Notes under the pieces: generated by a model
Seen by the model: the letters and a program-made list of their open reading frames with translations, nothing else
Databases searched by the model: none
What the model was told of the DNA's origin: nothing
Translations under genes and position numbers: made by a program
Shown here: piece after piece, positions 1,033 through 24,769 of the stretch
How the letters are laid out: the number at the start of each line of letters is the position of its first letter
How positions within the stretch are numbered: position 1 is the first letter of the stretch
Origin: an uncultured archaeon
GTDB lineage: Archaea > Asgardarchaeota > Thorarchaeia > Thorarchaeales > Thorarchaeaceae
Reading direction: 5' to 3'
DNA length: 32,000 nt
Assembly (NCBI GenBank): GCA_964648855.1
Contig: CAZYLT010000010.1
Span: forward strand, 74,919 to 106,918

Positions 1033-1410
1033 ATGATATACATGGGTCTTAAGGCAGTTGGAGCTGCTCAAGGTTATACGGTACTCGGTGGAATAGTGTT
1101 GGCTATCTTCGCAGTACAAATGGTTCTAGGTGGACTTGAGAATGCAGCAGGCGGAGACGTAAATGCGCTAATTGACGTAATTCTAGGAATATCCCTCATA
1201 ATAATGGTAATCTTGGCATTCGATGCCTGCGGATTCATTAATTTCAGAATTGAAAGGTCAGGTCTCTTGCTTGCCCTCATCGGATTCATATCAATCGTAA
1301 TAGTCGTACGCGGTCTAGAGATCAATATTATATCTTGGTTGACAAATCTAGGCACTCTTGCTGGATTTATGATTCTCCTTGCCGGACTACTCCTAGCGCT
1401 CAGAAAGTAG
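1033..1410 (+). CDS. Small hydrophobic membrane protein (about 4 TM), function unknown
   Basis: 125 aa with four Gly-rich hydrophobic stretches. The true start may be the ATG at 1042. Confidence 0.75.
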   Translation: MIYMGLKAVGAAQGYTVLGGIVLAIFAVQMVLGGLENAAGGDVNALIDVILGISLIIMVILAFDACGFINFRIERSGLLLALIGFISIVIVVRGLEINIISWLTNLGTLAGFMILLAGLLLALRK

Positions 1411-1425
1411 CATTGGAATGGTAAC

Positions 1426-1782
1426 ATGTCAGACGATTTGGAAGAGACCAGCAGGCTATCGACTTTTCTGATTATCTTTGGTGCTATTCTCACGGGAGTG
1501 CATGGTATCCTCTTCGTTATGAACTTCGGCAGGTGGCTAGAATTTCTCCCAACAATTGAACTTGGAAGCGTCCTAGGCAATCTGACGGGTTTGTCAATAG
1601 GGGTTCTTTTGATATTTCTCTCAATTCTTACCCTCGCGATTTCAAGTTCATTGATAGAGTTACCAGTTTCAAACAATCGAGAATGGATTCCTTTTCTCTT
1701 GCTTGGTCTATTGATGTACTTCCTTGGCGGGACACTTGGCGGGCTTTTAGTCATCATGGGTTCTCTATTGAAATTGATCTGA
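1426..1782 (+). CDS. Small hydrophobic membrane protein (about 4 TM), paralogue of 3285-3620
   Basis: 118 aa. C-terminal WIPFLLLGLLMYFLGGTLGGLLVIMGSLLKLI matches WIVLLILGILIYIFGSGLGGILVIIGAILLAL of the 3285-3620 protein. Confidence 0.8.
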   Translation: MSDDLEETSRLSTFLIIFGAILTGVHGILFVMNFGRWLEFLPTIELGSVLGNLTGLSIGVLLIFLSILTLAISSSLIELPVSNNREWIPFLLLGLLMYFLGGTLGGLLVIMGSLLKLI

Positions 1783-1880
1783 CACGTTACAATAGCTACA
1801 ATGTCTGCGGGGCCTCAATCGCAAATTAGATAATGAAGAGGGAATTGCCTATGCCTAGAATTCCATGAGGATTGTTGGCG

Positions 1881-3230
1881 ATGGACGAGAAAGATATTGA
1901 GCTTATCAGAGAATTAGGATTTGGAGAAATCACTTCTAAGGAGCTTTCAAATGAATATTGGAAAGAGAGGGCTGCAAAGGCACTCGCAATAACTACGCAG
2001 GATCGAGAAGTCTACGGCTGCCTTGACCATACCCGCGGTGAGGGTGTGAGGATTTATGATATTGAAGGAAAAGAGTACTTGGATGTCACGGGAGGAGTGG
2101 CAGTAAGGGCTCTTGGTCTTAGATACCCACCTTATCTCGAATTTGAGAGTCGTATAAATGATGTAGTCCGTGAACTCCCCGGAATGGATTTTGACGCAAT
2201 TCCTCAAACACTTCTTGCTGAACGTCTAAGCGATATCGCACCTGGTGACCATAAGAAGAGAGTCGTCTTTACAACTTCTGGAGGACGAGCAGTTGAGGGC
2301 TGTCTTAAATCTGCAATGGATCTGTCCGGGAGGACGAGATTCGTTGGATTCAGGCCCGCATTCCATGGTCGAACTGGATATGCCTTGGCTCTTACTGCTT
2401 CAAATCACAAACATAAGAACGGATATCCACAAGGCATCGACGTAATCCGTGTATCATATCCTTATTGTTATCGTTGTCCGTATGGCAAAAAGGTCGAGTC
2501 TTGCAATGTGGAATGTGTTGAGGCTCTGCGATATGCACTTCAAGTTGAAGGGACGGATATCGCCGCAACTGTGATGGAACCACTGTGTGGAGAAGGTGGT
2601 CTCATTGTACCGCCATCCAAAGCCGTGCAGGGGATGTACGATGTAACAAAAGAGCACGGTGCATATTTCATTTCAGACGAGGTCCAAGCAGGCATGGGAC
2701 GAACTGGACAATGGTTCGCAATTGAAAATCATGATGTAGTTCCCGACTATATCTGCATGGCAAAAGCCCTCGGCGGAGGATATCCGATGGGTGCTTCAAT
2801 AGGTCCAGCTCCGATGTTCACAGGCGGAAGTCGTCACTCTGAAACTTTCTCTGCGGAACCCAAAATGTCTCTGCTGTCTCTTTGGATTCTAAAGCAAATT
2901 GAAGATGGCAACTACCTAAAGAAGAATGCTGAGAAGGGAGAGTATCTGTTCAAACGATTAGAGGAGTTGAAGGAGAATAATGAGGTTGTTGGTGATGTCC
3001 GAGGAATGGGTCTCATGGTGGGCATAGAACTTGTAAAGGATAAGAAAACGAAAGAGAAGGCTCCCAAACTACGTGATCGCGTTGTCAAGAATGCAGTTCA
3101 AAAACAGGGGCTCTGGATATTGGGTTCAGGACAGAATTGCCTTCGACTAACTCCAAGCTATGTCATAACAGAGGACGAGCTGGATTCTGCTGTCGATAAG
3201 ATAGAAACCGCAATCAAGGAATCTGTCTAG
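1881..3230 (+). CDS. Class III PLP-dependent aminotransferase (GabT/ArgD-like family)
   Basis: Motifs GVRIYDIEGKEYLD, FTTSGGRAVE, AFHGRT, EPLCGEGG, FISDEVQAGMGRTG, PDYICMAKALGGG (PLP lysine) and DVRGMGLMVGIE. An alternative TTG start lies at 1872. Confidence 0.93.
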   Translation: MDEKDIELIRELGFGEITSKELSNEYWKERAAKALAITTQDREVYGCLDHTRGEGVRIYDIEGKEYLDVTGGVAVRALGLRYPPYLEFESRINDVVRELPGMDFDAIPQTLLAERLSDIAPGDHKKRVVFTTSGGRAVEGCLKSAMDLSGRTRFVGFRPAFHGRTGYALALTASNHKHKNGYPQGIDVIRVSYPYCYRCPYGKKVESCNVECVEALRYALQVEGTDIAATVMEPLCGEGGLIVPPSKAVQGMYDVTKEHGAYFISDEVQAGMGRTGQWFAIENHDVVPDYICMAKALGGGYPMGASIGPAPMFTGGSRHSETFSAEPKMSLLSLWILKQIEDGNYLKKNAEKGEYLFKRLEELKENNEVVGDVRGMGLMVGIELVKDKKTKEKAPKLRDRVVKNAVQKQGLWILGSGQNCLRLTPSYVITEDELDSAVDKIETAIKESV

Positions 3231-3248
3231 ATTAGATGATAATAGAAG

Positions 3249-3275
3249 GCCCTTGCAAGAAACGCGTGCAAGGGC
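3249..3275. terminator. Perfect 9-bp inverted repeat between convergent genes; candidate bidirectional terminator or 3' hairpin
   Basis: GCCCTTGCA (3249-3257), a 9-nt loop, then TGCAAGGGC (3267-3275), between the stops at 3230 (+) and 3285 (-). Confidence 0.55.
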
Positions 3276-3284
3276 ATTCATGGT

Positions 3285-3620
3285 TTATAGTGCTAGTAGA
3301 ATAGCTCCAATGATTACCAGAATCCCGCCCAAGCCTGAGCCAAATATATAGATCAGAATACCCAGAATCAGAAGTACTATCCAGCTCTTACCTAGTTTAA
3401 GGGCCGGTATATTGATAACTCCGCTGGTAGCCAGCGTCACGAGTGAAACAACAATCAGTATTATCCCACTAATGATTCCTCCCAAAATCCCTCCCAATTC
3501 CCAACCAATGGGGTCGAAAAGCGGAAATGAGAGCACGGCTGCTATTCCATAGATGATGCCCACAATGCCGCCGATGAGCACTAAGAGTTCTCCAAGTTTT
3601 GTCATGCTGCTTTTTGCCAT
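3285..3620 (-). CDS. Small hydrophobic membrane protein (about 4 TM)
   Basis: Start moved to the ATG at 3620 (MAKSSMTK...), which follows an AGGTGA Shine-Dalgarno motif. Gly-rich TM helices. Confidence 0.8.
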   Translation of the reverse strand: MAKSSMTKLGELLVLIGGIVGIIYGIAAVLSFPLFDPIGWELGGILGGIISGIILIVVSLVTLATSGVINIPALKLGKSWIVLLILGILIYIFGSGLGGILVIIGAILLAL

Positions 3621-3853
3621 GGTTTTTTCACCTTTAAATGAATTAAAGCGGCTTTCTGGACAGAAAGAGTCTAATGAACCTCTAACCACAGTTAATTCAT
3701 CTAGATGTTCCACTCATCTTCCTGATAATCATTTTCATTCTCCAGATGGTTATCTAAACAACAGACCGTTTCATTAACAAAAATCATAAAGCTTGGTAAT
3801 ATCCGAAGGATGATGCTGCTCTTCAGCTAAAATACGAAGTAGGCCACATCAAA

Positions 3854-5191
3854 ATGAACAGCTCCGCCAATCACAAGTTTCAGAATGATTCGGTCAAAAA
3901 AGAAGAGATTCTAGAATTTGATGGAAGCATTAGCCCAGAAATTACAATTCCAAATAACCGGGCAATTCTGATTCTCAGTAAAGACCAATCATTTCTATCT
4001 CATGGTATTCACAAATTTCCTGCGAAGTTCTTTCCAGAACTTCCTAGATATCTGATCCGGAAATACTCGCAGGAGGGCGCTACAGTTCTGGATCCAATGT
4101 GCGGCAGCGGCACTGTTCCACTAGAAGCAATGCTTGCGAATAGGGTCGGCATCGGGCTAGACATTGACCCTATTGCACGACTTATAACAAAGGTAAAAAC
4201 AAATCCGCTGCCATCGTCAGAGCTTAGACAAATTGTGGCTCTTTTGAGAAACTGTATCCATCAAAAGACTCGGGACCCGTCCTATTCGCCGGCAATTCCT
4301 TCATTTCATTATCGCGACAAGTGGTTTCGCGATTTCGTCCTCTTCGAGCTTGGGATGATATTGGAATGTATCAATGAAACATGCGAAGATGAACCAAGCT
4401 ATAGCCCTGAACTACATGATTTCCTCCGGGTTGTCTTCTCGTCCATTGTGAGAGATGTATCAAATGCAGACCCTTACTGCACAAGAACCGTTATCCGCAA
4501 GAAACAGATTCGTCGAATACAGCCCGGAGAAACCATTGGATTGTTCTTTGAATCTCTATGTCAGCAGAAGGAAGCAATGTTGGAACTTCTCGATTATTGT
4601 CGAACTAACGGCGTTTCTCGAACGCATCTCCCATTGGCAACTGCAACTCATATTCCTCTGGCTGATGACTCTATTGATTTGGCTATTACTTCTCCTCCGT
4701 ATATCAACGCAGTCGATTACACAAGAACCCATCAACTTGAGATGTATTGGTTGGATATGCTAGATGACGCTCCACTATCGGAGAGAAAGAGGAAATACAT
4801 AGGTACAGAAACTGTTTACAAGAGTGAGTACAAGGGTCTAAGAATCTCGGGATACAAATCCTTAGATCCATTGCTTCATTCTATTCATGAGGTGGATCCT
4901 CGACGCTCTTTCATCGTGTACAAGTTTTTTGAGGATATGAGAATCCAACTATCAGAAACGTTGCGAGTCCTCAAACCGGATGGAAAATACTGTATTGTTA
5001 TTGGAAATAACACAGTCAGGGGGCATGAGGTGAACTCTCATGAGATTCTCTCTGAAATTGCCACATCAGATGACATTGGATTCCAGCTGGAGAAGAAGTT
5101 CTTCTCTCTGCTGATTCGGCACTTCATTAAAATTCCTCGACCCGAAAGAATGAATGGGGAATGGGTCTTGATCTTCCGGAACCCCAAATGA
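3854..5191 (+). CDS. Site-specific DNA amino-methyltransferase, probably N4-cytosine; no adjacent restriction enzyme
   Basis: HGIHKFPAKF precedes the SAM-binding VLDPMCGSGT. The catalytic ITSPPY comes later, followed by RVLKPDG..IVIGN. SPPY is typical of m4C MTases. Confidence 0.88.
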   Translation: MNSSANHKFQNDSVKKEEILEFDGSISPEITIPNNRAILILSKDQSFLSHGIHKFPAKFFPELPRYLIRKYSQEGATVLDPMCGSGTVPLEAMLANRVGIGLDIDPIARLITKVKTNPLPSSELRQIVALLRNCIHQKTRDPSYSPAIPSFHYRDKWFRDFVLFELGMILECINETCEDEPSYSPELHDFLRVVFSSIVRDVSNADPYCTRTVIRKKQIRRIQPGETIGLFFESLCQQKEAMLELLDYCRTNGVSRTHLPLATATHIPLADDSIDLAITSPPYINAVDYTRTHQLEMYWLDMLDDAPLSERKRKYIGTETVYKSEYKGLRISGYKSLDPLLHSIHEVDPRRSFIVYKFFEDMRIQLSETLRVLKPDGKYCIVIGNNTVRGHEVNSHEILSEIATSDDIGFQLEKKFFSLLIRHFIKIPRPERMNGEWVLIFRNPK

Positions 5192-5273
5192 AGCTGCTGC
5201 ATACTTTGAGGCCAAAGCTTATGTGTCCACAGGAGTCTTGAAAGCCACTCAACTAAATGGAGGTACAACATTT

Positions 5274-5532
5274 ATGGCAACAAATCTAAGGTGGGATCGC
5301 GTTTGCCAAGCGCTCATTCTTAGCATTACCTCCGTCTGCGAAATTCTTGTACGTTCTTCTGAAGCGTAATCGCCGCCTTTCAAGGCAGCAGCTGATTACC
5401 AGAACATTTCTTCCTCCGCGAACTGTGAATTATGCTATCAGTCGCTTGAAAGAACTAAATCTACTGGAAGAAGAGGAACATGATACGGATGCTCGTGAAC
5501 GGATATATGTGCTAGCTGCTGCTCCAATGTAG
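5274..5532 (+). pseudogene. Small winged-helix (MarR-like) regulator with an apparent 1-nt frameshift near its 5' end
   Basis: The wHTH frame (FAKRSFLALPPSAKFLYVLLK...LPPRTVNYAISRLKELNLL...DARERIY) has an upstream stop at 5287-5289 and no canonical start before the conserved LPPSAK. An ATG at 5274 with GGAGGT at 5259-5264 is in another frame. Confidence 0.6.
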
Positions 5533-5662
5533 GATTCAAAGGCGACGGACAATTCGGATATTGTAATTAAATATCCATATGTATAGTGGTAGCCAGGTTT
5601 CTCCAAAAGCCTCATAACCAAGTCCTCTGGCATTGAAATAACAGGAGTTCAAGGACGTATCA

Positions 5663-7024
5663 ATGGTGGACTATTACAAACAGGCAGATGTACGCCCCAT
5701 AGGCGAGGATCGAAGAAACCACTATACATATGAAATAGGAAAAGGTCTCATTGGCAAGCAGGTTACTTTGGTTGGTTGGGTACATATTCTCAGAGATAAG
5801 GGAAAAATCAAGTTCCTTATTCTTCGTGATGAGCGAGGAACAACTCAAATCACCATTCCTAAGAAGCGAGTACCTAAACAAGTCTTTGAAATCTCCGAGA
5901 ACCTGAAACCTGAAACAGCTGTACTCGTCAAAGGAGAAGTTGTTGCGACTGATTTTCTTCCATCCGGTGCTGAAATCATCCCATCTGAAATCCGCGTGCT
6001 AAACTGGTCAGAAACAATTCCTATAGACATAGTTGAGGGAAAGGTCGACATTGACCTTGACACGCGACTGAACTATAGAGTCCTAGACCTCCGGAAACCA
6101 AGAGTGAATGCCATATTCCGGATTCAACACTCCCTAGTCAGATTCGCACGTGAATTTCTTGAACAGAATGAATTCACTGAAATACACACTCCGAAAATTG
6201 TAGCAGCAGCAACCGAGGGTGGCGCAAACCTCTTTGAAATAAAGTACTTTGAAAAGCCAGCCTATCTAGCTCAGAGTCCTCAATTCTACAAGCAGCTTAT
6301 GCTCTTAGCGGGCTTTGGAAGGGTCTTCGAGATTGCCCCCGTATTTCGAGCTGAGAAACATAACACTCCAAGGCATATGAATGAATATACTTCATTCGAC
6401 TTCGAAATGGCTTGGATAAGCGGAGTTGAAGATGTGATGAAAATGGAAGAGCAGATGCTGCATCATGCCTTCAACAAGACAAAGCAAGTGGCCAGCAGGG
6501 AGCTGGAGCTTCTGGAAATTGAACTGCATGTCCCCAAACTACCCTTTGAGCGAATCAAATATGCGGAAGTCATCGACTTACTGCAAGATGCTGGAAAAGA
6601 GATTACATTGGAAGATGACTTAGATCCTGAATCGGAGCGAATGCTCGCAGACATATTTCCTGAGAAATTCGGTACCGATATGGTATTCATAACGCACTAT
6701 CCCACGGAGCTTCGCCCTGCTTATACCATGCCAAGTGTCACTGACGAGGGCATGACTGAGAGTTTTGACCTAACATACAAGGGAATGGAAATCACCACGG
6801 GCGGACAGAGAATCCATCTCTATGATCTACTTCTGGAGCGGTTCAAAGCCAAGGGGTTTGACCCGGACCGATTCGTCTTCTATCTTGACCCATTCAAGTA
6901 TGGTGCTCCTCCACATGGTGGGCTGGGTCTCGGAGTCGAGCGACTTACCATGCAACTTCTCGGCATAGAAAATATTCGAGAGGCTAGTCTTCTCCCGAGA
7001 GATCGTGACAGGATTACCCCCTAA
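5663..7024 (+). CDS. aspS: Aspartate--tRNA ligase, archaeal type, probably non-discriminating (Asp/Asn)
   Basis: OB-fold [10 protein letters not shown]; AATEGGA; [11 protein letters not shown]; motif 2 [11 protein letters not shown]; motif 3 [12 protein letters not shown]. Pro in the anticodon-binding loop (FLPSG) is as in non-discriminating enzymes. Confidence 0.97.
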
Positions 7025-7083
7025 TAGGGTATGATTCTAGTCGGATACACCGGTACTTCGGACCTCAACCCAATAATACTCTC

Positions 7084-7127
7084 TTTTAAAGGAGCACACA
7101 ACAAAATTCGTTTAGTAGTCTAGACTA
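7084..7127 (+). promoter_or_regulatory. Candidate TATA box with a perfect 12-bp palindrome near the expected transcription start of the ESCRT-II gene
   Basis: TTTTAAA at 7084-7090 and TAGTCTAGACTA at 7116-7127. Confidence 0.4.
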
Positions 7128-7159
7128 GACAAGAAACCAGTCTGAAGGGATATCTGGCG

Positions 7160-7963
7160 ATGCATGACCATATTCACCAGGAGCTTTACGCTTCAATAGC
7201 TACCTTAGATCAACTCAAGAAGATGTATGACCTTGGTGCGGTTGATATCAGGTCATTCCAGCGGGAATCTGATGCTCTCGTAAACGAAGTAAAAGGTCAT
7301 TTGGATGAGATGAGGCGCATGGGTATTGATGTTGGGGGATTCATGGCAGAACAAAGAATCTTAGACGAGTTTCCAGATGCAGCAGGATTAATCGAATTCT
7401 ACCAACACAGGTCCAGACCGGCATTAGATGGATACACAATGGATGAATATTACGATCATCTGGGGTTGGCTGTTCTAGATGTTGCTACTACACACTCTGC
7501 GAAAGGCTTGTTGGGTCTAGCGGACCTGATAGTTGAGGTTGTCAACCGTGTGCCGCAGTTCAAGTCAGTCAGCTATAATGATGTCATAGAGGCGGTCAAT
7601 AGGGTCGCAGAAAACGGACTGATTCCAGGGATACGAACTCTACGTGGTGGTGTGAAAGTTGTAGAGCTTCGTCCACTAGAGCTACGCGGCGACCAATCGG
7701 ATGTGGTTAATCTTGCAGCTACGAAGGGATATACCTCTGTGGAAGAGGTCATGATGGAGCTCAAATGGTCTGAGGACCACGCTCGTCAAGTGCTATCAAG
7801 TCTAGTTGATGCGGGAATGGCTGTTGCCGATATTCGGTTCAGTACCGGCGGTAGATACTATTTCCCTGGGTTGCATCACAAGTCCTCAGATAAGGCAAAT
7901 GGTCATGAAATGCTAGATAGAAGAAGAGATGGCCGAGACTCTCCCCCAGCTCATGGCTTGTAA
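7160..7963 (+). CDS. ESCRT-II Vps22/Vps36-like (EAP30) tandem winged-helix protein with an N-terminal Vps28-like helical domain
   Basis: EYYDHLGLAVLDV...KGLLGLADL...VSYNDVIEAV...PLELRGDQSDVVNLA..KGYTSVEEVMMELKWSEDHARQVLSSLVDAGMAVAD...YYFPG follows the Vps22/EAP30 pattern. The first ~80 aa (ELYASIATLDQLKKMY..G.VD...F) resemble the Vps28 N-terminus. Lies next to vps25 and vps4. Confidence 0.85.
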   Translation: MHDHIHQELYASIATLDQLKKMYDLGAVDIRSFQRESDALVNEVKGHLDEMRRMGIDVGGFMAEQRILDEFPDAAGLIEFYQHRSRPALDGYTMDEYYDHLGLAVLDVATTHSAKGLLGLADLIVEVVNRVPQFKSVSYNDVIEAVNRVAENGLIPGIRTLRGGVKVVELRPLELRGDQSDVVNLAATKGYTSVEEVMMELKWSEDHARQVLSSLVDAGMAVADIRFSTGGRYYFPGLHHKSSDKANGHEMLDRRRDGRDSPPAHGL

Positions 7964-7977
7964 TTCTATATTCATGC

Positions 7978-8691
7978 CTAAGAAATACGAATTTTTATTG
8001 CCGCCCTTTTCTTGTCTACCCATTCAGCGAGTTCTTGTTCCACTAGAATCCCTAGGACTGTTTTGATTTCATCTTCAGGGAGACCTGCAAAATCTTGGTT
8101 ACTTTCTTGGATTACGAGCGTCTTGACATCCAACCTAGTCTTACCTGTTTCAATAGCCCATGCATAAACGATATCCGCCCAGTCTTGTATGGGTCTCCAG
8201 TAGATCCGAAGCTGTCCATTGTTTTTTCCAATCCATTCAGCAACGTCCTTTTCAACCAGCTTTTCGGCTATGAACCTGAAGGCCTTGACTTTTCCAAATA
8301 TGTCGCAAAAGGGCGGTTCAGTAATGAAGGTTGCAAGTGATATTTTGTGTGCCGTATTCCTCTGTGCCCACTCCAAGAGGAAATCCCCCCATTCATCTGC
8401 CCAGAGATTTCGGTCATCTTCTTCGATAGGGATATGGTACATCAATTCATACTCTTTGACGCTGCCCCATGATGGCAAGAAAATCTCGGGTTCAGCTGAT
8501 ACTTCCTCGACAACCTGAGTTTTGAATTCGTCTTTGATGGTCGTTATGTCTTCTTTCTCGTCGATACTGTCCACTTCAATGGCTTCGACTTCTTGCTCTT
8601 CAATTTCATCTGTTCTTGATTCAACTGTTTCTTCTTCTGAACGATCTTTTTCTTTACTCTTCTTCTCTTTTTTGCGCTCTCTGACTCCCAC
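7978..8691 (-). CDS. vps25: ESCRT-II Vps25-like subunit with a charged, probably disordered N-terminal extension
   Basis: WADEWGDFLLEW...PPF...LVEKDVAEW...LRIYWRPIQDWADIVYAWA...FAGLPEDEIKTVLGILVEQELAEW matches the Vps25 WH-WH pattern (IxWRxxxxW). Starts 3 nt after the vps4 stop. Confidence 0.9.
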   Translation of the reverse strand: MGVRERKKEKKSKEKDRSEEETVESRTDEIEEQEVEAIEVDSIDEKEDITTIKDEFKTQVVEEVSAEPEIFLPSWGSVKEYELMYHIPIEEDDRNLWADEWGDFLLEWAQRNTAHKISLATFITEPPFCDIFGKVKAFRFIAEKLVEKDVAEWIGKNNGQLRIYWRPIQDWADIVYAWAIETGKTRLDVKTLVIQESNQDFAGLPEDEIKTVLGILVEQELAEWVDKKRAAIKIRIS

Positions 8692-8694
8692 GAA

Positions 8695-9918
8695 CTATGA
8701 ACCCTCCGCCCATTCTTTGTATCTACGAATGTCTTCAGGCGATGTTGCCGGGCGAATATTTTCAATCGCATTGAGAAAGTCCAATCTTGACACTGGTCTT
8801 AATCTGAAGCCAGCTTTCTCTGTAGGAGGTATATCGCTCTGCAATTCTCTGATAGGTTCCATCGCGGCTTCTCTACATACAACGCTGATATCTCTCCCGC
8901 TGTATCCCTCTGTCAGGTCAGCAAGCTCATTGAAGTCCACATCTGGTCCGACTTCAATATCATCAATATGTATTTTGAAAATCCTGACTCTTGCGGCTTT
9001 ATTGGGGAGGGGAACATTGATCCTTTTCTCAAATCGGGATCGTAAGGCGAAATCGATGTCCCATGGTAGATTTGTGGCCCCAATGAGTGTAACTCTTTCA
9101 TCACTCTTACTTGTTAGTCCTTGAAGTTCCGTCAACAATTGGGTCTTGAGTCTTCTTTCGCCACCAACATCTTCTCCGCGCCTTGAAACCCCTATAGAAT
9201 CAAGCTCATCTATGAATATGATAGATGGCTGGTTGTCGCGCGCAGAATCGAAGAGGTGTTTAACCAATCGCTCTGATTCACCAAGCCATTTACTCACTAT
9301 ATTTGCTGCTGATACATTGAAGAAGGTGGCATTTACTTCGTTTGCAACCGCCTTGGCAATTAAGGTCTTTCCACAGCCTGCTGGTCCATAGAGTAGAATG
9401 CCTTTCCAAGGCTGCCTAGCCTTGCCTTTGAACAACTCGGGGTGCTTCATGGGTGATATGATGGCATCATGTATAGCCTGTTTTGCATCATTGAGTCCTG
9501 CAACTTCTGACATCTTGACATCAGGGCGCTCGGAGAGGATTGTATCAGAAATCATCTCGTTGAGCCTTATCTCATCCTCATCTTCCTCTTCAGGCGGGCT
9601 ACTTGCTGGTTTCTCATGTCTTATACTATCATCATGGATTGGTTCAGGCGGCCTGGCGAGACCCTTTTCTTGTCCCCTAGCTTTTTTCTTGATGCCCGAA
9701 AGATAACGAACCCTATCTACACACTCTTGAGCCCGTTTGAGGTAATGCTTTCGGACTGAAGGGAGACTCGTTGCATTTGAGAGTTTGATCAATATCTTAC
9801 TGGCTTTGAGGTATTTTTGACAGGCCTCCTTCTTCAGTCCTCTCTGGTCCAGATCGATAGCTCTGTCGAGGAGTTCTCGTAAGCCTTTATCGAGTCTAGT
9901 TCCATTGGTATCGCTCAT
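8695..9918 (-). CDS. vps4: Vps4-like AAA+ ATPase with N-terminal MIT domain
   Basis: MIT-like three-helix N-terminus (RAIDLDQRG..KEACQKY). Also WKGILLYGPAGCGKT (Walker A), pore loop SKWLGESERLV, IIFIDE (Walker B), GATNLPW, TEGYSGRDI..VCREAAMEPIR and C-terminal RYKEWAE. Confidence 0.95.
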   Translation of the reverse strand: MSDTNGTRLDKGLRELLDRAIDLDQRGLKKEACQKYLKASKILIKLSNATSLPSVRKHYLKRAQECVDRVRYLSGIKKKARGQEKGLARPPEPIHDDSIRHEKPASSPPEEEDEDEIRLNEMISDTILSERPDVKMSEVAGLNDAKQAIHDAIISPMKHPELFKGKARQPWKGILLYGPAGCGKTLIAKAVANEVNATFFNVSAANIVSKWLGESERLVKHLFDSARDNQPSIIFIDELDSIGVSRRGEDVGGERRLKTQLLTELQGLTSKSDERVTLIGATNLPWDIDFALRSRFEKRINVPLPNKAARVRIFKIHIDDIEVGPDVDFNELADLTEGYSGRDISVVCREAAMEPIRELQSDIPPTEKAGFRLRPVSRLDFLNAIENIRPATSPEDIRRYKEWAEGS

Positions 9919-10119
9919 TGTTACCCCGTTAGAAAAATGCTGTATTGGTTGTTAAGAGCTTCTGTATTGCCCACAAACTACTGAGTTTTTCGAAAAGGAT
10001 GTTTAGAACCGCGCCTTAGAAACACCCGCACAGTTTCATTCCAGATGACTGCGAAGTGTTAAAATGGCATCCATATTATTGAAAGTGAAGAAGAATCTTA
10101 CTTCTTCAGGGTGAGCAAA

Positions 10120-10734
10120 TTGGGTATCTTCAAGAAAGCCTTCTCGTGGGGACGAAAGAAGCCTGATATCAATGAAGTTACAAGTCAGCTTCGCGTTCTA
10201 TCAAAACAACTTGAAAGACAGAGAAACAAGTTGGAAAAAGAAGAACGAGATACAAAGGCAAGAGCCATCAACGCACGAAAGAACGGAAACACGGAAGCCT
10301 TTCGGACCTATGCAAAGGAAATGGTGAGATTCAGACGTTTTGCTCTCTCAATTGATAAGTCGCGTCTTCAGATTTTGAAGATACTGGCTCATATAACTCG
10401 AGCACAAACCACCGCAAAAGCATCCAAGGCCCTTGACGATGTAGCTGATATTTTGGGTCTTCTTGGAGATGCCACGGACACCTCGAAAGTAATCGAAAAT
10501 GCAGATGAAATAGCCATGCGGCTGGAAGAGTTCGAGATTGAGAGCGGAATTGCAGGTGAAGCTTTCGACTCCACAACTGAATCTGAGGTGACTTCAGATG
10601 AATTGAGTGAAGCCATGAGAGAAATAGAGGCTGCCGCCCAAGTAGAGGGTTCTACTACAGGGGCGCATCCGATGACTGAAGCAGAGGAATTGGAAGAAGC
10701 CATCAAGTCATTAGAGAAAGAACTTGGTGTTTGA
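10120..10734 (+). CDS. ESCRT-III subunit (Snf7 family), Vps2/Vps24/Vps46 class
   Basis: Basic N-terminal hairpin KQLERQRNKLEKEE...KNGNTEAFRTYAKEMVRFRR (compare CHMP2 AKDLVRTRR), an acidic C-terminal half and a terminal amphipathic helix ELEEAIKSLEKELGV (MIM1-like). TTG at 10120 follows GGTGA at 10110-10114; the track start is GTG 10111. Confidence 0.9.
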   Translation: MGIFKKAFSWGRKKPDINEVTSQLRVLSKQLERQRNKLEKEERDTKARAINARKNGNTEAFRTYAKEMVRFRRFALSIDKSRLQILKILAHITRAQTTAKASKALDDVADILGLLGDATDTSKVIENADEIAMRLEEFEIESGIAGEAFDSTTESEVTSDELSEAMREIEAAAQVEGSTTGAHPMTEAEELEEAIKSLEKELGV

Positions 10735-10735
10735 A

Positions 10736-12295
10736 TCACCATCGACGATATTCATGGGTGTCGCCATACTGGTCGAGTTCCTTTCTAATACCATACGAGT
10801 CCCGCATCAAACCTCTGTATCTTCTTATGAAGTCTTCAGGTACAATTCTTCCACTGCGGAGTAGGTCTACCGTTTCAGAGAGAGCGGATTGCAGTTCGCG
10901 TTCATTTCTCCTTAATTGCTCGAAACCCATATCGTATCCTTGATTCCTTCGTCTGCTATCTCGATGCCCAAGTGTTCTTCTGAGCTCCTCAGCCAATTCA
11001 TCTTCGTATTTCTGCTTCTTTTGGTATCTACTTTGTGGGCTCCAAGGACGGTTCACCTCATCCCGGTATGGCACATAATATCCTCTCTTTGTTTCGGGAA
11101 CTTGACTCACCTGATCAGTTGACAGAATCGAGTAGATCAGCTCCTCAATCTTCAATCTCACATCGCTGACATTAACACTGGTCGCCTCGATCTTTCGTAC
11201 CCGGTGCATGTCGTCCTGCACGTACCTATCAAACTTCTTTGCGATCTGTATGTAATCTGAGAGGACCTGTTCCGTTTGTTCGTCACAATCAACTCGAACA
11301 TCACCCTGCTTTAACTTCAAAACCAATCGTTTTCTGAACCTTCCATCCTCTTCAAGAGATTTGAGATAGGCCAAGGGGAAGTCGAAGACGACCTCTGTCT
11401 TTTTGCGTACTAGTCCAGTTTCTGCAACGAATATGAGACGCTTGTTCGTAATATACAAGATCCCTGTGGTCTTATCATGCTTCAAGAAGTCGCTCCCACT
11501 GAGTTTTATCTCGGGAATTGCACATACAGGAAGCTCGTTTACCGACAGGTCTGAATACTCGTAGAATCCCGCGAAATGCTTCCTATAGTAGTCAAGACCT
11601 TCTAGATGCTCTGTTAGTTCACCCAAATCTAATTCTAGTGCTTGGAGTGAATCGTCAATATTGCTCTTGTATTGTCGTCCGATATGAGTTACGCGATTGG
11701 TCACGCCCTCAACAAATGGGAATTGACCTGTTTCCCATGTTTGGTAATCAATGAGTCCTTTTGTTTCTGCGAGCATTTTCTTGGCTACTATCTCGGCTTG
11801 GTTTGTAACGCGATTCTTGATAGCTATGAACTCATCTTGAATCTGTTCAACCCTATCTTCGAACCACTTGAAGCCAAGAAAATTTGCCATTCTTAATGAA
11901 ACAAGAATCCTTTTCGCGGAGGCGAGCCTAGTATTGAACTCTCTGAGTTTGGTGTGGCCGTAGTGAATACTCATGACTGCATTACGCAGTTCGTGAGCTA
12001 GGTTTCTGCGTTTATCTTCAATTCCCGCAATCCGAGTTGAATAGCAATTTGGACATATCTCTTCAATACGTTTTGCAGTAACAAAACTCTGTGATTCACA
12101 CTCAGGACAATTTTCCGGTTGCTCGCCCATTGGAACCCTCCCAATATTATGATGGCACTCTGCGCACATTGTGTATTCGCTTGATTTTGAATCAAGGCAA
12201 TTTGTGCATAGCAAAGCGCCACAGTCCTCGCACATATGCGTTGAGCGATTATCGCCACAAAGGCTGCAATAATTCGATGGTGAACCTTTTGTCAA
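10736..12295 (-). CDS. Multidomain ESCRT-I-like protein: Zn fingers (6 CxxC), coiled coil, PH/GRAM/GLUE-like domain, C-terminal Vps23/37-type steadiness box
   Basis: 12 Cys in six CxxC pairs in aa 10-84 and a long helical region. TTGILYITNKRLIF...FDFPLAYLKSL is a PH-like signature. ALSETVDLLRSGRIVPEDFIRRYRGLMRDSY is steadiness-box-like. GGAGG lies upstream of the TTG start. Confidence 0.78.
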   Translation of the reverse strand: MTKGSPSNYCSLCGDNRSTHMCEDCGALLCTNCLDSKSSEYTMCAECHHNIGRVPMGEQPENCPECESQSFVTAKRIEEICPNCYSTRIAGIEDKRRNLAHELRNAVMSIHYGHTKLREFNTRLASAKRILVSLRMANFLGFKWFEDRVEQIQDEFIAIKNRVTNQAEIVAKKMLAETKGLIDYQTWETGQFPFVEGVTNRVTHIGRQYKSNIDDSLQALELDLGELTEHLEGLDYYRKHFAGFYEYSDLSVNELPVCAIPEIKLSGSDFLKHDKTTGILYITNKRLIFVAETGLVRKKTEVVFDFPLAYLKSLEEDGRFRKRLVLKLKQGDVRVDCDEQTEQVLSDYIQIAKKFDRYVQDDMHRVRKIEATSVNVSDVRLKIEELIYSILSTDQVSQVPETKRGYYVPYRDEVNRPWSPQSRYQKKQKYEDELAEELRRTLGHRDSRRRNQGYDMGFEQLRRNERELQSALSETVDLLRSGRIVPEDFIRRYRGLMRDSYGIRKELDQYGDTHEYRRW

Positions 12296-12441
12296 ATACG
12301 TGCCTCCGGCTTGTCACGTTATTAGGAATATACCCTAAGAATAACGTGTGTATTATTCTACTAATACTTGCATGGCCAACTGCACAGTACGAATTAGTTA
12401 TAATATCAGGTTTTTCAAGCAGAAATCAGGACGAAAACACT

Positions 12442-13827
12442 ATGGAGGACTTGGCAAACGCAGCGATTGCTGCAGCTCTAGATGAGGGCGTCGAATTTGT
12501 TGATGTTCGTGTAGAAGACACTCAAACAACAATTATTGAAATCAGTGATGGCGTTACAAAACGGTCCATGGCCGCCCATCTGAAAGGTGCGGGAATACGA
12601 GCATTTGTTGATGGCTCATGGGGATTCAGCCAAACGACGGATTTGACTAGGGCTGGCATGAAGAAAGCTGGTGCATCTGTTGCAAAATTGGCACTTGCTA
12701 CGCGAGAAAAAGTATCTGCTCATTTTGAAATAGACGGCCCCTCAAACAAGGCTAGATCTCCCATTTCAGTCAAGATTCCATTCTCAGATATCCACTTTGA
12801 GGACAAAATTGGGTTTGCTAAGTATATTGATGAACAGGCACAATCATACGATGATCGGATTGCTAACACACGGACAATATATGGCGACCTCCAAACTGAG
12901 CTCTATATTGTAAATTCATTTGGAACCTCCGTATACACCGAAAACTCACTTCCAAGAATCATTTCGTCATTGACCGCAACAGATGGAAAAAACCGAAGAA
13001 GGGCGTCCGAGTCAATTGGCATTAGAAGCGGATTTGAGTTCACAGAATCCGAAGAGGCCCAGTCCATAGGGTCTTCCACTGCAGAGCTTGTCATAGACTT
13101 GCTTTCTTCAAAAGCAGCACCTGGTGGAGTCTTCGATGTTGTCGTGGACCCCGTGCTTAATGGCGTGATGGTTCATGAGGCATTTGGCCACGCCTGCGAG
13201 GCTGATAATTGGCCAGCACATACCACCGTACTTGAAGATAAGATTGGAAAAGAAGTAGGTCCTGAACAATTGAATATCACGGACAATCCAAAATTGCGTG
13301 GCAAACGAGGGAGTTTTGATTTCGATTGGGAAGGAACCCCGACAAGAAAGAGGACTCTGGTCAAAGATGGTGTTCTAACAGAGTTGCTGCATGATTTAGA
13401 AACCAGCTCCAGGCTCGAAATGGACGTTAATGGTGCTGCTCGAGCACAATCGTTTATGCATCCTCCTGTCCCTCGAATGAGCAATACATACATGGAGCCC
13501 GGTGATTGGGACGTAGATGAACTTATAGCTGATACAGAATCTGGCATATTGCTTTGTAGATTCAATTATGGCTATACTGAACCAGCAAAGGGTCAATTTA
13601 TGTTTCAGGCAGGTCATGGATACATGATAGAGGGCGGCGAGCTTGGTCATATGGTGAGAGACGTATCTATTGCAGGTCATATCTTAGATATTCTGGCAAA
13701 GGTTGATGCCATTGGATCTGATTTTGAATTAGACGCAGGAAACTGTGGAAAAGGCGGCCAGGTTGTACCTGATATGAGTGGAGGCCCACATGCACGAATT
13801 CGTAATGTCCCTGTTGGAGGGATGTGA
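12442..13827 (+). CDS. tldD: TldD family metalloprotease subunit
   Basis: GAGIRAFVDGSWGFS, HEAFGHACEAD (HExxxH), FDWEG, PRMSNTY and C-terminal GNCGKGGQ. Start moved to ATG 12442 to avoid overlap with the divergent gene. Confidence 0.93.
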   Translation: MEDLANAAIAAALDEGVEFVDVRVEDTQTTIIEISDGVTKRSMAAHLKGAGIRAFVDGSWGFSQTTDLTRAGMKKAGASVAKLALATREKVSAHFEIDGPSNKARSPISVKIPFSDIHFEDKIGFAKYIDEQAQSYDDRIANTRTIYGDLQTELYIVNSFGTSVYTENSLPRIISSLTATDGKNRRRASESIGIRSGFEFTESEEAQSIGSSTAELVIDLLSSKAAPGGVFDVVVDPVLNGVMVHEAFGHACEADNWPAHTTVLEDKIGKEVGPEQLNITDNPKLRGKRGSFDFDWEGTPTRKRTLVKDGVLTELLHDLETSSRLEMDVNGAARAQSFMHPPVPRMSNTYMEPGDWDVDELIADTESGILLCRFNYGYTEPAKGQFMFQAGHGYMIEGGELGHMVRDVSIAGHILDILAKVDAIGSDFELDAGNCGKGGQVVPDMSGGPHARIRNVPVGGM

Positions 13828-18518: not shown

Positions 18519-19352
18519 ATGTCAGAGAGTAGAGACATTCAAGGAGTCTGGTTGATGGAGCGTAAGACTGGTCGGAATCTCATCTCTAAGGCATATAGCG
18601 GCATTGAAATCGACATGGACTTGATTGCTCCGTTTCTTTCTGCCACTCATACTTTCATCGATAAAGCATCTCATGAAAACTTGAAGACAATTGATACTGA
18701 GAATAATCGCTACGTCTGGGAAGCAACGGACGACTTGCTTTTCGTCATGGTTGTTTCCAAGAGCGCTCGTTTGAGTCATATGCGATTCTTGGTAGAATAT
18801 GCTCTCAAGGAATTCATGAAAAACGAAATACCACAGGACCAGAATTTAGATAATCTCTTGAAAGGTTGGACAGGTACTTCAAAGACCTTCAAGCGTTTTG
18901 GCAACTTTGTTGATGAGCTCATAAATCAATATGAGGTCACTGACGAAGCACTCATTGCTGGAAAAGCAATGGACTGCTTAGAGGTTTACAGCCACTTGAT
19001 AAAATCCATTCTCTGCGTTGAAATCGACAATAAGACGCGAAATCGGCTCACAGATACCCTCCTTGAGAGAGCTAAAGATGTCGTTGGGAAATTTTCCTGT
19101 TTGGCTGAGGTGCCAATTGATGAGAATGGAATTGACGTTCTCTGTATTGATGTATACAACACCAGTTATCGTCAACTGAGAGACGCCCTCGAGGAACTAC
19201 TGAGAGTGGTTGCTATTGCAACAAAGGAAATCAGCCCTAAAGATGCGTTCAGAGAAATGATTTTCGAGGAAACCATGCCGTATGTGAAACGCGATATTTC
19301 CCGGTTACAAACATATGCAATTCTCGATGATGTTGTGCGATATCTATTCTAA
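18519..19352 (+). CDS. Hypothetical protein with an N-terminal longin-like domain and a helical C-terminal domain
   Basis: IQGVWLMERKTGRNLISKAY...DMDLIAPFLSATHTF...LKTIDTENNRYVW...LLFVMVV then a long helix. This is the beta-beta-alpha-beta-beta-beta-alpha pattern of longin domains common in Asgard archaea. Confidence 0.65.
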   Translation: MSESRDIQGVWLMERKTGRNLISKAYSGIEIDMDLIAPFLSATHTFIDKASHENLKTIDTENNRYVWEATDDLLFVMVVSKSARLSHMRFLVEYALKEFMKNEIPQDQNLDNLLKGWTGTSKTFKRFGNFVDELINQYEVTDEALIAGKAMDCLEVYSHLIKSILCVEIDNKTRNRLTDTLLERAKDVVGKFSCLAEVPIDENGIDVLCIDVYNTSYRQLRDALEELLRVVAIATKEISPKDAFREMIFEETMPYVKRDISRLQTYAILDDVVRYLF

Positions 19353-20692
19353 GGCCTGCCTAGCATAACGATTGATCGTTGAACTATTTGTCCCCTTTTT
19401 CGTTCGATAAGAGCGGTTCTATTTGGAATGATTTCAAGCTGTTCACTGCTTACAATCGAGTCGTGAAATGCACTATCTGGCAGCAATTTATACACAACTA
19501 GATTTGTACCCTCAAGTAGCTCATCCACCAGTACCATAACTTCACCGCTTTTTGTCTGGATGTTAGGCAGAGTCATAGCAATTCTTCCTCTTGGATTCAA
19601 TATCTTGGAGATTTCCTGAATGGCATCGCGATACAGTTCAGTAAGATCCTGGATGGTTTCGAGTGCCCTAGCCTTTTCGGGACGCTTGGTGTATATTGGT
19701 CCAAGGTCTGGTTCGAAGGCAGCCGCGTCTACCGGTGTGGTTACAGTCTTGGTGAGATTCCTGGCATTTCCGTGATAAATACGAAAATCGAGAGGCATAT
19801 TGAGATCTTGTGATAACCATCTGAGATTAGATTTGGTCCCTTCTACCGCATTTCCATCAATATCGAGACCAATGCATTTCATACCCAAAAGGGCAGCTTC
19901 CATCAGGAGAGTTCCAGTTCCACAGAAGGGATCCAACACCGTATCTCCTTCCCGTGCTCCTGATAGAGTTAGTAAGGTTCGACATAGCTTTGGACTGGTG
20001 CTGATTTCACTGGAGATATATGGTCTAGCTTCATCACGATAACGTTGCAACATTGAATCATATACTGCAACCGACTTTGCCAGATACAAATCTCTCTCGG
20101 CAATGATGGCTAGGATTTCCGCGTTTGGCGGAACGAGTAGATTATGCTTTGCTATAGCCTTTGGCCACAATGCAGTGTTTTTGCTCGCACTATCTCTCCT
20201 GTCTGGTTTTTCATAGATAATGTAGTCTACACTCTTGGCTCCCCTGTCTAGTAAGTCTTTCTTGATATACTGGTCAAGTGATCGAGTTAGTCGCTGGAGA
20301 TGGACCCTGAAACCCCTTCCAAATGGAGGATAGGTCGAAACGCCAAAGCTGATACTCTTCCTATTTGGTTTCGGCCAAATACTCTTAGTCCATTCAACTT
20401 CAGCCAGCAATTTCCGGGCTTCCCTATCGCCCTTCCCCCTGTCAGGAAAAGCATCACGAATCAAGTCAATAGTATAGGTCCGGATAAGTCGGCCGGTTTT
20501 GTAGCAACCCCCTAATTGGCTCTGTAGGTGCACAATCTGTTCATCCGTGATATTTCCGTCAATCTCCACTATCATGCCATTCCTGGTATTATCGATTACC
20601 TTAGGATTGTAGCCTTTGTCTTGAAGGAGTGTGATGACCTCTGCAATGGATAGAATCCAATTTTTTCCGAGAACAAATACGAGTCTGGTCAT
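19349..20692 (-). CDS. Trm11/TrmG10-like SAM-dependent RNA methyltransferase with an N-terminal THUMP-like region
   Basis: RP.....STSPKLCRTLLTLS..REGDTVLDPFCGTGTLLMEAALLG, GLDID, and motif IV variant FEPDLG. Confidence 0.8.
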   Translation of the reverse strand: MTRLVFVLGKNWILSIAEVITLLQDKGYNPKVIDNTRNGMIVEIDGNITDEQIVHLQSQLGGCYKTGRLIRTYTIDLIRDAFPDRGKGDREARKLLAEVEWTKSIWPKPNRKSISFGVSTYPPFGRGFRVHLQRLTRSLDQYIKKDLLDRGAKSVDYIIYEKPDRRDSASKNTALWPKAIAKHNLLVPPNAEILAIIAERDLYLAKSVAVYDSMLQRYRDEARPYISSEISTSPKLCRTLLTLSGAREGDTVLDPFCGTGTLLMEAALLGMKCIGLDIDGNAVEGTKSNLRWLSQDLNMPLDFRIYHGNARNLTKTVTTPVDAAAFEPDLGPIYTKRPEKARALETIQDLTELYRDAIQEISKILNPRGRIAMTLPNIQTKSGEVMVLVDELLEGTNLVVYKLLPDSAFHDSIVSSEQLEIIPNRTALIERKRGQIVQRSIVMLGRP

Positions 20693-23959: not shown

Positions 23960-24769
23960 CTAGTGGGCTTGCCAGAATGTCCAAGTCAAAACTAACATAC
24001 ATGCTATAGCCACGATTGTCGCCCATCCTGTCGATGTATTATGCGCCTCTCTGATTCCAAATATCAATAGGAATCCCACCCAAACAAAAGAGGCTGTGGT
24101 GAGGTAATCAATGATCAGCCACATATCTGATTGGAATATAGAGTTGATAATTTCGGGGCCTGGCGTCGCTCCGAGTGTGTATGTTGGCATCACTATGAAT
24201 ACGTACAATAAGGCAACAAGACGAAATAGTAGTAGAGGTAGCATGCTATACCCGACAACTGCAGCCGTCTTTCCCTTTCTTCCCAGACCTCCAGTCACCT
24301 TAAATGCTAGGTGTGCAAAGGCCGTCCCTACAACGAGATAGACAATGCCTAGGATGGTATTTGGAAGAATAGATAGTAATCCAGTTATCAGAAACTCGAA
24401 GCCTGCAGGGGCAAGAAGTACGCTCACTGTAGCAGTCTGTCCTGTGGTTGCATTCACAATCACTGTAGTAGTAAACTTCGAAGATATCGTCAAGAAAAAT
24501 CCGGCAAGAATAAGCGCGTTTGCCAATATCACAACAAACGGCCCGAAATAATCAGGTCTTTGTGCGATGTCTCTGTATGCCGCATTTGGTCTCCTTAATA
24601 CACCCCATAATCTCTCTGCTGTACTTAGAACTCTGACATCTGGGGCTGCCGGTCTCTTAAGCATCGGCAGTACTCGTTCCAGTGTTTCCTCTGCAATATC
24701 CTCTCCACAGACCGGACATACGGTTGCATCTGCGGCTACGGGTGACTCGCAGAATTCACATCGTCGCAC
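23960..24769 (-). CDS. Zinc-ribbon + Yip1-family membrane protein
   Basis: N-terminal CEFC...CPVCG, then GVLRRPNAAYRDI and five TM segments including AHLAFKVTGG, VVGYSMLP and LLIFGIREAH. Confidence 0.78.
   Translation of the reverse strand: MRRCEFCESPVAADATVCPVCGEDIAEETLERVLPMLKRPAAPDVRVLSTAERLWGVLRRPNAAYRDIAQRPDYFGPFVVILANALILAGFFLTISSKFTTTVIVNATTGQTATVSVLLAPAGFEFLITGLLSILPNTILGIVYLVVGTAFAHLAFKVTGGLGRKGKTAAVVGYSMLPLLLFRLVALLYVFIVMPTYTLGATPGPEIINSIFQSDMWLIIDYLTTASFVWVGFLLIFGIREAHNTSTGWATIVAIACMLVLTWTFWQAH

Follow-up and report, generated by a model that had tools for sequence, protein, structure and literature searches.

We analyzed a stretch of 32,000 nucleotides (hereafter the window) from an uncultured archaeon of the Thorarchaeaceae (Asgardarchaeota; assembly GCA_964648855.1, contig CAZYLT010000010.1, positions 74,919 to 106,918) and identified in it a cluster of five genes of the endosomal sorting (ESCRT) machinery. 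The cluster spans positions 7160-12295 and is flanked by aspS (5663-7024) and tldD (true start at 12442). It is the standard ESCRT locus of the Thorarchaeota lineage, and its identity as the core ESCRT cluster of a thorarchaeote is practically certain. We also consider it quite probable that the ancestral Asgard system persists here in reduced form, acting in the working order that we propose below. Two of its products are at the center of this reading. One fuses the N-terminal steadiness box (SB) of Vps28 to Vps22, and the other, Znr_CC_PH_SB, combines zinc ribbons, a coiled coil, a PH domain, and a C-terminal SB. The two SBs are predicted to contact each other.

An initial annotation, made from the sequence alone, had placed five contiguous ESCRT genes between aspS and tldD. 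All five are genuine genes, and the families then proposed were recovered by Pfam, PDB, and fold matches for the EAP30, Vps25, MIT plus AAA, Snf7, and SB proteins. Along the cluster the strands read + / - - / + / -, with gaps of 14 bp and 1 bp at the convergent ends and of 192 bp between the divergent genes. Hence, the cluster comprises several transcription units and is not one operon. Its GC level is flat, at about 45%. The long open reading frame 12091-13827 is tldD with a false upstream extension, since its homologues begin at 12442. The genome is a metagenome-assembled genome (MAG) of 62 contigs, 94.6% complete, and its host belongs to Thorarchaeota. The nearest, and sole, named relative of the 519-aa SB protein is that of Ca. 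Thorarchaeota TEKIR_14 (89% identity). A synteny comparison, advised with the initial annotation, revealed the same five-gene order in 20 of the 22 complete thorarchaeal loci. In one of the two exceptions the ESCRT-IIIA and SB genes were relocated together, and in the other, from the sister family, both are elsewhere.

A fusion of the Vps28 steadiness box to Vps22

The fusion protein consists of a Vps28 N-terminal SB headpiece (aa ~2-82), the tandem winged helices of Vps22/Snf8 (aa ~92-238), and a disordered C-terminal tail. A profile of aa 1-82 of the fusion family matched the N-terminal end of Vps28 from 11 further Asgard genomes (hmmsearch, 1e-12 to 1e-19, over aa 4-80), and a profile of aa 92-241 matched the Vps22 of the same 11 genomes. 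With hhalign, the N-terminus scored 99.5% to Asgard Vps28-N against 0.1% to the N-terminus of non-thorarchaeal Vps22, which substantiates the joining of ESCRT-I to ESCRT-II by gene fusion that had been suggested at the outset. In profile searches of the PDB, SNF8 was matched by the C-terminal part (2e-21), and the N-terminal part gave a weak match (E 0.02) to yeast Vps28, aa 31-88. The winged helices are nearer to Vps22 than to Vps36 (E 0.55 for Vps36), and the top Foldseek matches of the fusion are ESCRT-II Vps22 chains. The C-terminal four-helix bundle of Vps28, its C-terminal domain (CTD), had no match in the fusion protein or anywhere in this genome by profile search, and therefore the protein is not a full Vps28. 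The N-terminal helical domain proper to Vps22 was not found in the fusion either, where the Vps28-SB replaces it.

The full-length matches to the fusion (about 70) all belong to two thorarchaeal families, among the matches listed from 301 Asgard genomes. The best non-thorarchaeal ones, within the best 150 matches, score no higher than about 165 bits, with alignments beginning at profile positions 20-106. The idea that all Asgard Vps22 carry an SB is thus unsupported, as the N-termini of 11 non-thorarchaeal Vps22 are not SB-like (hhalign 0.1-0.2%). In 9 of the 11 non-thorarchaeal loci, vps28 immediately precedes vps22 and shares its strand. The simplest origin of the fusion is therefore an in-frame deletion between the two adjacent and co-directed genes, and this is what most likely happened, judging from gene order.

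A second Vps22-like protein, of about 780-820 aa, is encoded on another contig of this genome (C5:44605-47073) and has an EAP30 match at 7e-8. From its N-terminus, it comprises a part without assignment, a coiled coil, an Ig/carboxypeptidase-regulatory-like segment, a Vps22-like helical domain, and tandem winged helices. A second match to the fusion-family alignment was found in most thorarchaeal genomes. This protein may serve as a second stalk subunit of ESCRT-II or as an adaptor for cargo. Two further EAP30 matches in the genome were weak, one of them being an MCM winged helix.

A widespread protein with zinc ribbons, a PH domain, and a steadiness box

We assigned the 519-aa protein to Znr_CC_PH_SB (cog.011556) by its architecture and context. 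In the alignment, six CxxC pairs at aa 10-84 are invariant or nearly so, and they are predicted to form about three Zn sites, i.e., three N-terminal Zn ribbons. The AlphaFold2 (AF2) model (pLDDT 80.8) has Zn strands, a helical stalk (92-246), a PH barrel (256-353), a disordered linker, and a confident C-terminal hairpin (456-518). The strands of the PH domain (256-336), completed by a closing helix, follow the coiled coil. Foldseek returned the PH-like domain of Lam6, MTMR2, EAP45-GLUE, and the Vps36 PH among many DH-PH proteins. The PH domain is the most conserved part of the protein, with near-invariant basic loops at R297-K299 and R319-R323.

On matches to the SBs of Vps28 and Vps23 from Asgards (E ~0.003), the C-terminal hairpin is assigned as an SB. 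Its best PDB sequence match is yeast Vps23, where aa 460-514 align weakly (E 0.009-0.035) on the headpiece chain 2f66_A, and its typing by hhalign as Vps23 or Vps28 gives 44% against 48%. No UEV domain was found in this protein or in the genome. It may have a Vps23-like role at the headpiece without being a member of the Vps23/TSG101 family.

Homologues of this protein are present in 209 of 301 Asgard genomes, including the ubiquitin-bearing genomes G027, G030-G033, G035, and G040, of which G031 had contributed a sequence to the query alignment. The hypothesis that the protein is a thorarchaeal invention replacing UEV-Vps23 is ruled out by these homologues in Asgards that bear ubiquitin and UEV-Vps23. 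For the same reason, it was an overstatement to call the locus rewired. The gene stays beside that of ESCRT-IIIA even in rearranged clusters (locus L086; contig C23 of genome G025). The orthologue in genome G016 (L088:9068-10969), 633 aa long, matches only to aa ~393-411, and a replacement or a frameshift seems to have altered its C-terminus, SB included.

A predicted contact between the two steadiness boxes

We modelled the complex of the two SB hairpins, one from the fusion and one from Znr_CC_PH_SB. The model scored 0.66, against 0.01 for the best control. Of 80 solved complexes, 58 attained the mark, as did 2 of 110 mismatched pairs. Contact agreement between runs was at least 94% and the pLDDT of the partner at least 76. 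The model resembles the solved yeast Vps23-Vps28 headpiece. Hence, its pass may reflect this likeness, and it supports binding rather than showing it. The columns of the predicted interface are more conserved than the rest of the domain on both sides (0.78 against 0.60 and 0.72 against 0.48), although the genomes are related and these values not independent. The interface residues A11, A14, and T15 of the fusion and F489, Y493, and M497 of Znr_CC_PH_SB are among the best conserved of their domains. Taken with the modelling, we find it likely that the fusion is wired to Znr_CC_PH_SB through their SBs.

The ubiquitin arm

As the initial annotation had noted for the cluster and the window, no ubiquitin, E2, UEV, or MPN protein was found among the window proteins scanned. 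Genome-wide, Asgard-type profiles of the same four families gave no significant match, and PF00240, PF05743, and PF09454 had none in this 94.6% complete genome, the negatives of PF09454 and of the two-sequence MPN profile being weaker because no positive control stands behind them. The Asgard ubiquitin and UEV profiles do recover held-out members (leave-one-out E 1e-18 to 1e-53), and other Asgard genomes served as positive controls for the Pfam profiles, whose built-in controls gave no signal. PF00240 was found in none of 86 genomes of the family, including 23 high-quality and two single-contig assemblies, against 13 of 15 non-thorarchaeal Asgards, and PF00179 showed the same split. Since ubiquitin was not found family-wide, its true loss in this thorarchaeal family is likely.

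What is lacking is a eukaryote-like ubiquitin/UEV arm, but elsewhere in the genome ThiF/E1-like genes occur on contigs C1 and C34 and a defence-type E2/E1/JAB cassette on contig C42. The latter contig (9 kb) encodes, at 1180-9070, PIN, CARF, membrane+NYN, E2, ThiF/E1, JAB, cas1, and probable cas2. From its gene content, we predict a prokaryotic ubiquitin-like conjugation cassette of the defence type within a CRISPR-cas locus, in which we recognised no gene for a modifier. We discarded the C42 E2, a weak and sole UQ_con match, as a candidate ESCRT partner: the catalytic Cys is present, its E2/E1/JAB cassette lies beside CRISPR genes, and no E2 of this type was found with PF00179 in other thorarchaeal genomes (0/25).

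Elsewhere in Asgards, the non-thorarchaeal genome G029 (93% complete; locus L098 on contig C10) carries Vps4, Vps25, two ESCRT-III genes, and a match to the Zn/PH family. Ubiquitin, E2, Vps28, and Vps22 all went unmatched in G029 in these searches. It is possibly a second ubiquitin-less and further reduced ESCRT system.

Vps25, Vps4, and the ESCRT-III proteins

The other genes of the system encode more conventional ESCRT proteins (Table 1). Vps25 has an acidic low-complexity N-terminus followed by tandem winged helices, and its profile matches Vps25 at 11 other Asgard loci (1e-21 to 1e-46). Its gene begins 3 bp downstream of vps4, and the two are probably co-transcribed. Vps4 has an MIT domain, a single AAA domain, and a Vps4_C domain, with ESCRT genes as neighbours. 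Its Walker A (GPAGCGKT), Walker B (IIFIDE), and pore loop motifs are intact by reading of the sequence, and 37 of 41 Asgard genomes carry its orthologue in single copy. The best PDB matches of ESCRT-IIIA are CHMP1B, CHMP2A, and CHMP3. By inspection, its C-terminus forms an amphipathic MIM1-like helix, and the protein is orthologous to ThorAB25_09000 (ESCRT3A). The divergent region between vps4 and the ESCRT-IIIA gene probably contains back-to-back archaeal promoters.

ESCRT-IIIB is encoded on another contig, and therefore the cluster is not self-contained. With it and the second Vps22-like protein encoded elsewhere, the description of a minimal five-gene machine could not be kept. ESCRT-IIIB is orthologous to ThorAB25_07240 and, by inspection, has an inositol-monophosphatase-like gene and an HAD-like gene as neighbours. 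Both ESCRT-IIIA and ESCRT-IIIB are present in every genome of the family included in that search. From these sequences, the set is predicted to have ESCRT activity, i.e., membrane binding, ESCRT-III polymerisation, and Vps4-driven remodelling.

Table 1. Features of the thorarchaeal ESCRT system and of the C42 cassette (window positions unless a contig of the same genome is given)
Feature	Position	Strand	Length (aa)	Evidence
Vps28-SB::Vps22 fusion	7160-7963	+	267	Pfam EAP30 4e-13, aa 92-224
Vps25 (ESCRT-II)	7978-8691	-	237	Pfam ESCRT-II 4e-13
Vps4 AAA+ ATPase	8695-9918	-	407	Pfam MIT, AAA, lid, Vps4_C
Divergent intergenic region vps4/ESCRT-IIIA	9919-10110	.		Two short conserved AT-rich blocks; alignment of 18 thorarchaeal intergenic regions
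ESCRT-IIIA (Vps2/24/46, CHMP1-3 class)	10111-10734	+	207	Pfam Snf7 4e-10
Znr_CC_PH_SB protein	10736-12295	-	519	Weak Pfam B-box, zinc-ribbon, PH, GRAM matches; alignment; AF2 model
ESCRT-IIIB, stand-alone, outside the cluster	C5:2840-3490			Closest to Heimdall ESCRT-IIIB (5e-12)
C42 cassette (predicted)	C42: catalytic E2 5272-5712; ThiF/E1 5688-6551; JAB 6597-7607			PADLOC E2, E1-E2, JAB models matched

Proposed working order and alternative explanations

The working order that we propose draws on established ESCRT biochemistry and on published two-hybrid statements (Hatano et al. 2022, PMC9192718). Znr_CC_PH_SB would dock on the cytoplasmic membrane via its basic GRAM/GLUE-like PH domain, with the Zn ribbons perhaps reading a protein or lipid signal in place of ubiquitin. 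Its C-terminal SB would pair with the Vps28-type SB of the fusion to form the ESCRT-I headpiece. We propose that, with the SB and Vps22 joined in one chain, no Vps28-CTD bridge to ESCRT-II is required. Vps22, which self-interacts in the published two-hybrid, would then bind Vps25, and the latter would nucleate ESCRT-IIIB. ESCRT-IIIB followed by ESCRT-IIIA would polymerise together and thereby bend and sever the membrane in the direction away from the cytoplasm, in the service of vesicle release or repair and possibly division, and Vps4 would bind the ESCRT-III tails through its MIT domain and recycle them.

Recruitment through the Zn and PH modules is plausible. Among Asgards that have retained ubiquitin and UEV-Vps23, the Zn/PH/SB family is widespread, and this suggests the loss of a ubiquitin arm rather than the gain of a new module. 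Hence, Thorarchaeota most likely kept the older Zn/PH/SB branch and lost the ubiquitin branch. We lean, more cautiously, towards a stronger version, where the thorarchaeal deletion hard-wired ESCRT-I to ESCRT-II with no Vps28-CTD bridge, leaving Znr_CC_PH_SB as the sole upstream adaptor of a six-protein pathway free of ubiquitin. Some observations weigh against these views. The SB call for aa 456-518 of Znr_CC_PH_SB is weak by sequence (hhalign 44-48%, PDB E 0.009-0.06), and the genome is incomplete, so that the result for ubiquitin is "not found". The genome has seven ThiS/MoaD-like domains together with ThiF-type enzymes, and therefore leaves room for a SAMP-like tag. Finally, thorarchaeal contacts of ESCRT-I/II with ESCRT-III that skip Vps25 have been suggested (PMC9192718).

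Were the system still dependent on a tag, the Zn ribbons or the PH/GLUE-like domain would read a SAMP/ThiS/MoaD-type tag, or the product of the C42 cassette, on the cargo. The ThiS-family matches and the ThiF/E1-like genes on C1 and C34 offer material for such a tag, as does C42 with its E1, its JAB, and an E2 that has the catalytic Cys. The PH model also resembles EAP45-GLUE, a domain that binds ubiquitin. However, no tag-type gene is found among the conserved neighbours of the cluster in 23 thorarchaeal loci, and the Zn region lacks, by inspection, the NZF-type motif W-x-C-x2-C-T-F. The cassette itself, confined to this genome among those searched, is surrounded by CARF, PIN, NYN, and cas1 genes and matches PADLOC defence models. 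We therefore regard a tag-dependent system as quite improbable. An assembly gap hiding ubiquitin and a canonical UEV-Vps23 as the true partner is scarcely credible. A fragmented and incomplete MAG leaves space for such a gap, but the family-wide search, with its single-contig assemblies and with ubiquitin recovered by the same search in other Asgards, largely refutes it, and the same absence is reported in two papers (PMC9192718; preprint 10.1101/2023.07.25.550441).

Znr_CC_PH_SB could alternatively act in the manner of the crenarchaeal CdvA, polymerising at or marking a membrane site through its SB or coiled coil and recruiting ESCRT-III directly, with cell division as the main task and with the fusion and Vps25 as a parallel or secondary route. 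The constant proximity of its gene to that of ESCRT-IIIA fits such a role, SB and CdvA are related by HHpred (PMC10936438), and the suggested routes skipping Vps25 (PMC9192718) point in the same direction. Yet, a conserved SB of Vps28 type on Vps22 needs a second SB to pair with, and apart from it the sole SB candidate that we found in the genome is Znr_CC_PH_SB. The SB-SB model also passes its controls, with the caveat of its likeness to the solved headpiece. We find the CdvA-like role unlikely, and retain the reduced ancestral system with SB-SB wiring as the preferred explanation.

Other genes of the window

The remaining window genes that were scanned are mostly housekeeping or metabolic. 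A small helix-turn-helix (HTH) gene upstream of aspS (5347-5532, +) is found in most of the thorarchaeal loci examined, at 48-100% identity. There are two N4/N6 DNA-methyltransferase-like genes (3854-5191, +; 19349-20692, -), the first of which recurs next to aspS in many thorarchaeal genomes. At 12 kb from the ESCRT cluster, the window encodes a membrane protein with a Yip1 domain (23960-24769, -; Pfam 1.5e-20). The Yip1 family is tied to eukaryotic membrane trafficking.

Relation to known ESCRT systems

Earlier publications already cover the cluster, both of its unusual proteins, and the missing ubiquitin, and the novelty that the initial annotation had tentatively claimed for the wiring does not hold. 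Hatano et al. 2022 (PMC9192718) report Thorarchaeota without ubiquitin and UEV proteins and plot the thorarchaeal synteny. Their two-hybrid set comprises ThorAB25_08990 (SB), 09000 (ESCRT3A), 09010 (Vps4), 09020 (Vps25), 09030 (Vps22), and 07240 (ESCRT3B). According to their text, the SB protein and Vps28 may interact in Loki and Thor, the Vps22 of Thor interacts with itself, and in Asgard sets ESCRT-IIIB is bound by Vps25. Makarova et al. 2024 (PMC10936438) describe Znr_CC_PH_SB (asCOG cog.011556) as three Zn ribbons, a coiled coil, a PH domain, and an SB, and propose it as a membrane-binding ESCRT-I component, likely ancestral in Asgard. They list an SB-fused Vps22 (cog.002769), and their Table S3 assigns aa 1-70 of the thorarchaeal Vps22 KXH75178.1 to the VPS28 N-terminal SB (99% in HHpred). 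The lack of UEV-Vps23 in Thorarchaeota is also given in a preprint (10.1101/2023.07.25.550441).

What our analysis adds is a set of refinements: the restriction of the fusion to Thorarchaeota, the loss of the Vps28-CTD, and the probable SB-SB contact. The literature cited here neither states nor demonstrates the restriction, the deletion origin, or a direct SB-SB contact. As orthologues of the cluster are already cloned, its value is small as a discovery, but it has some value as a test system. If the SB-SB contact is true, it provides a natural ESCRT-I/II/III/Vps4 set that is small, functions free of ubiquitin, and could be rebuilt in vitro. Such a set may serve to ask by what means ESCRT-I was recruited before ubiquitin or alongside it, one of the steps by which eukaryotic membrane trafficking originated. 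If the hard-wired reading is true, it exposes an older, non-ubiquitin recruitment branch of Asgard ESCRT.

The closest known system is the cluster of Thorarchaeota AB_25 (PMC9192718), a different genome with the same five proteins under consecutive locus tags, orthologous to ours by inspection of the supplement sequences. In both, the genes of the SB protein, ESCRT-IIIA, Vps4, Vps25, and Vps22 are adjacent and ESCRT-IIIB (07240 in AB_25) is apart, and no ubiquitin or UEV was found here. In the accessible part of that paper, 09030 is labelled plain Vps22 and the Vps28-SB fusion is not described for Thor. In PMC10936438, the SB fusion is worded as a general trait of Asgard Vps22, whereas we observe the full fusion only in Thorarchaeia. 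The ubiquitin-ESCRT cluster of Odin-, Heimdall-, and Helarchaeia comprises UEV-Vps23, Vps28, Vps22, Vps25, Vps4, ESCRT-IIIA/B, ubiquitin, E1, E2, and MPN. It shares with the thorarchaeal one orthologous Vps22 winged helices, Vps28-SB, Vps25, Vps4, and ESCRT-III, as well as the vps25-vps4 linkage. Thorarchaeota differ in missing the ubiquitin cascade, UEV-Vps23, and the Vps28-CTD, in the merging of vps28-N with vps22, and in having ESCRT-IIIB elsewhere. Relative to eukaryotes, the thorarchaeal system has no UEV and no Vps28-CTD:GLUE bridge, and its PH and Zn modules are on the SB protein, not on Vps36. Both SB hairpins map, weakly, to chains A and B of 2f66 in the eukaryotic ESCRT-I headpiece (Vps23-Vps28-Vps37; PDB 2F66/2CAZ), while in ESCRT-II (Vps22-Vps36-Vps25; PDB 1U5T/3CUQ) the counterparts are SNF8 for the winged helices and the Vps36 GLUE domain, which the PH domain resembles.

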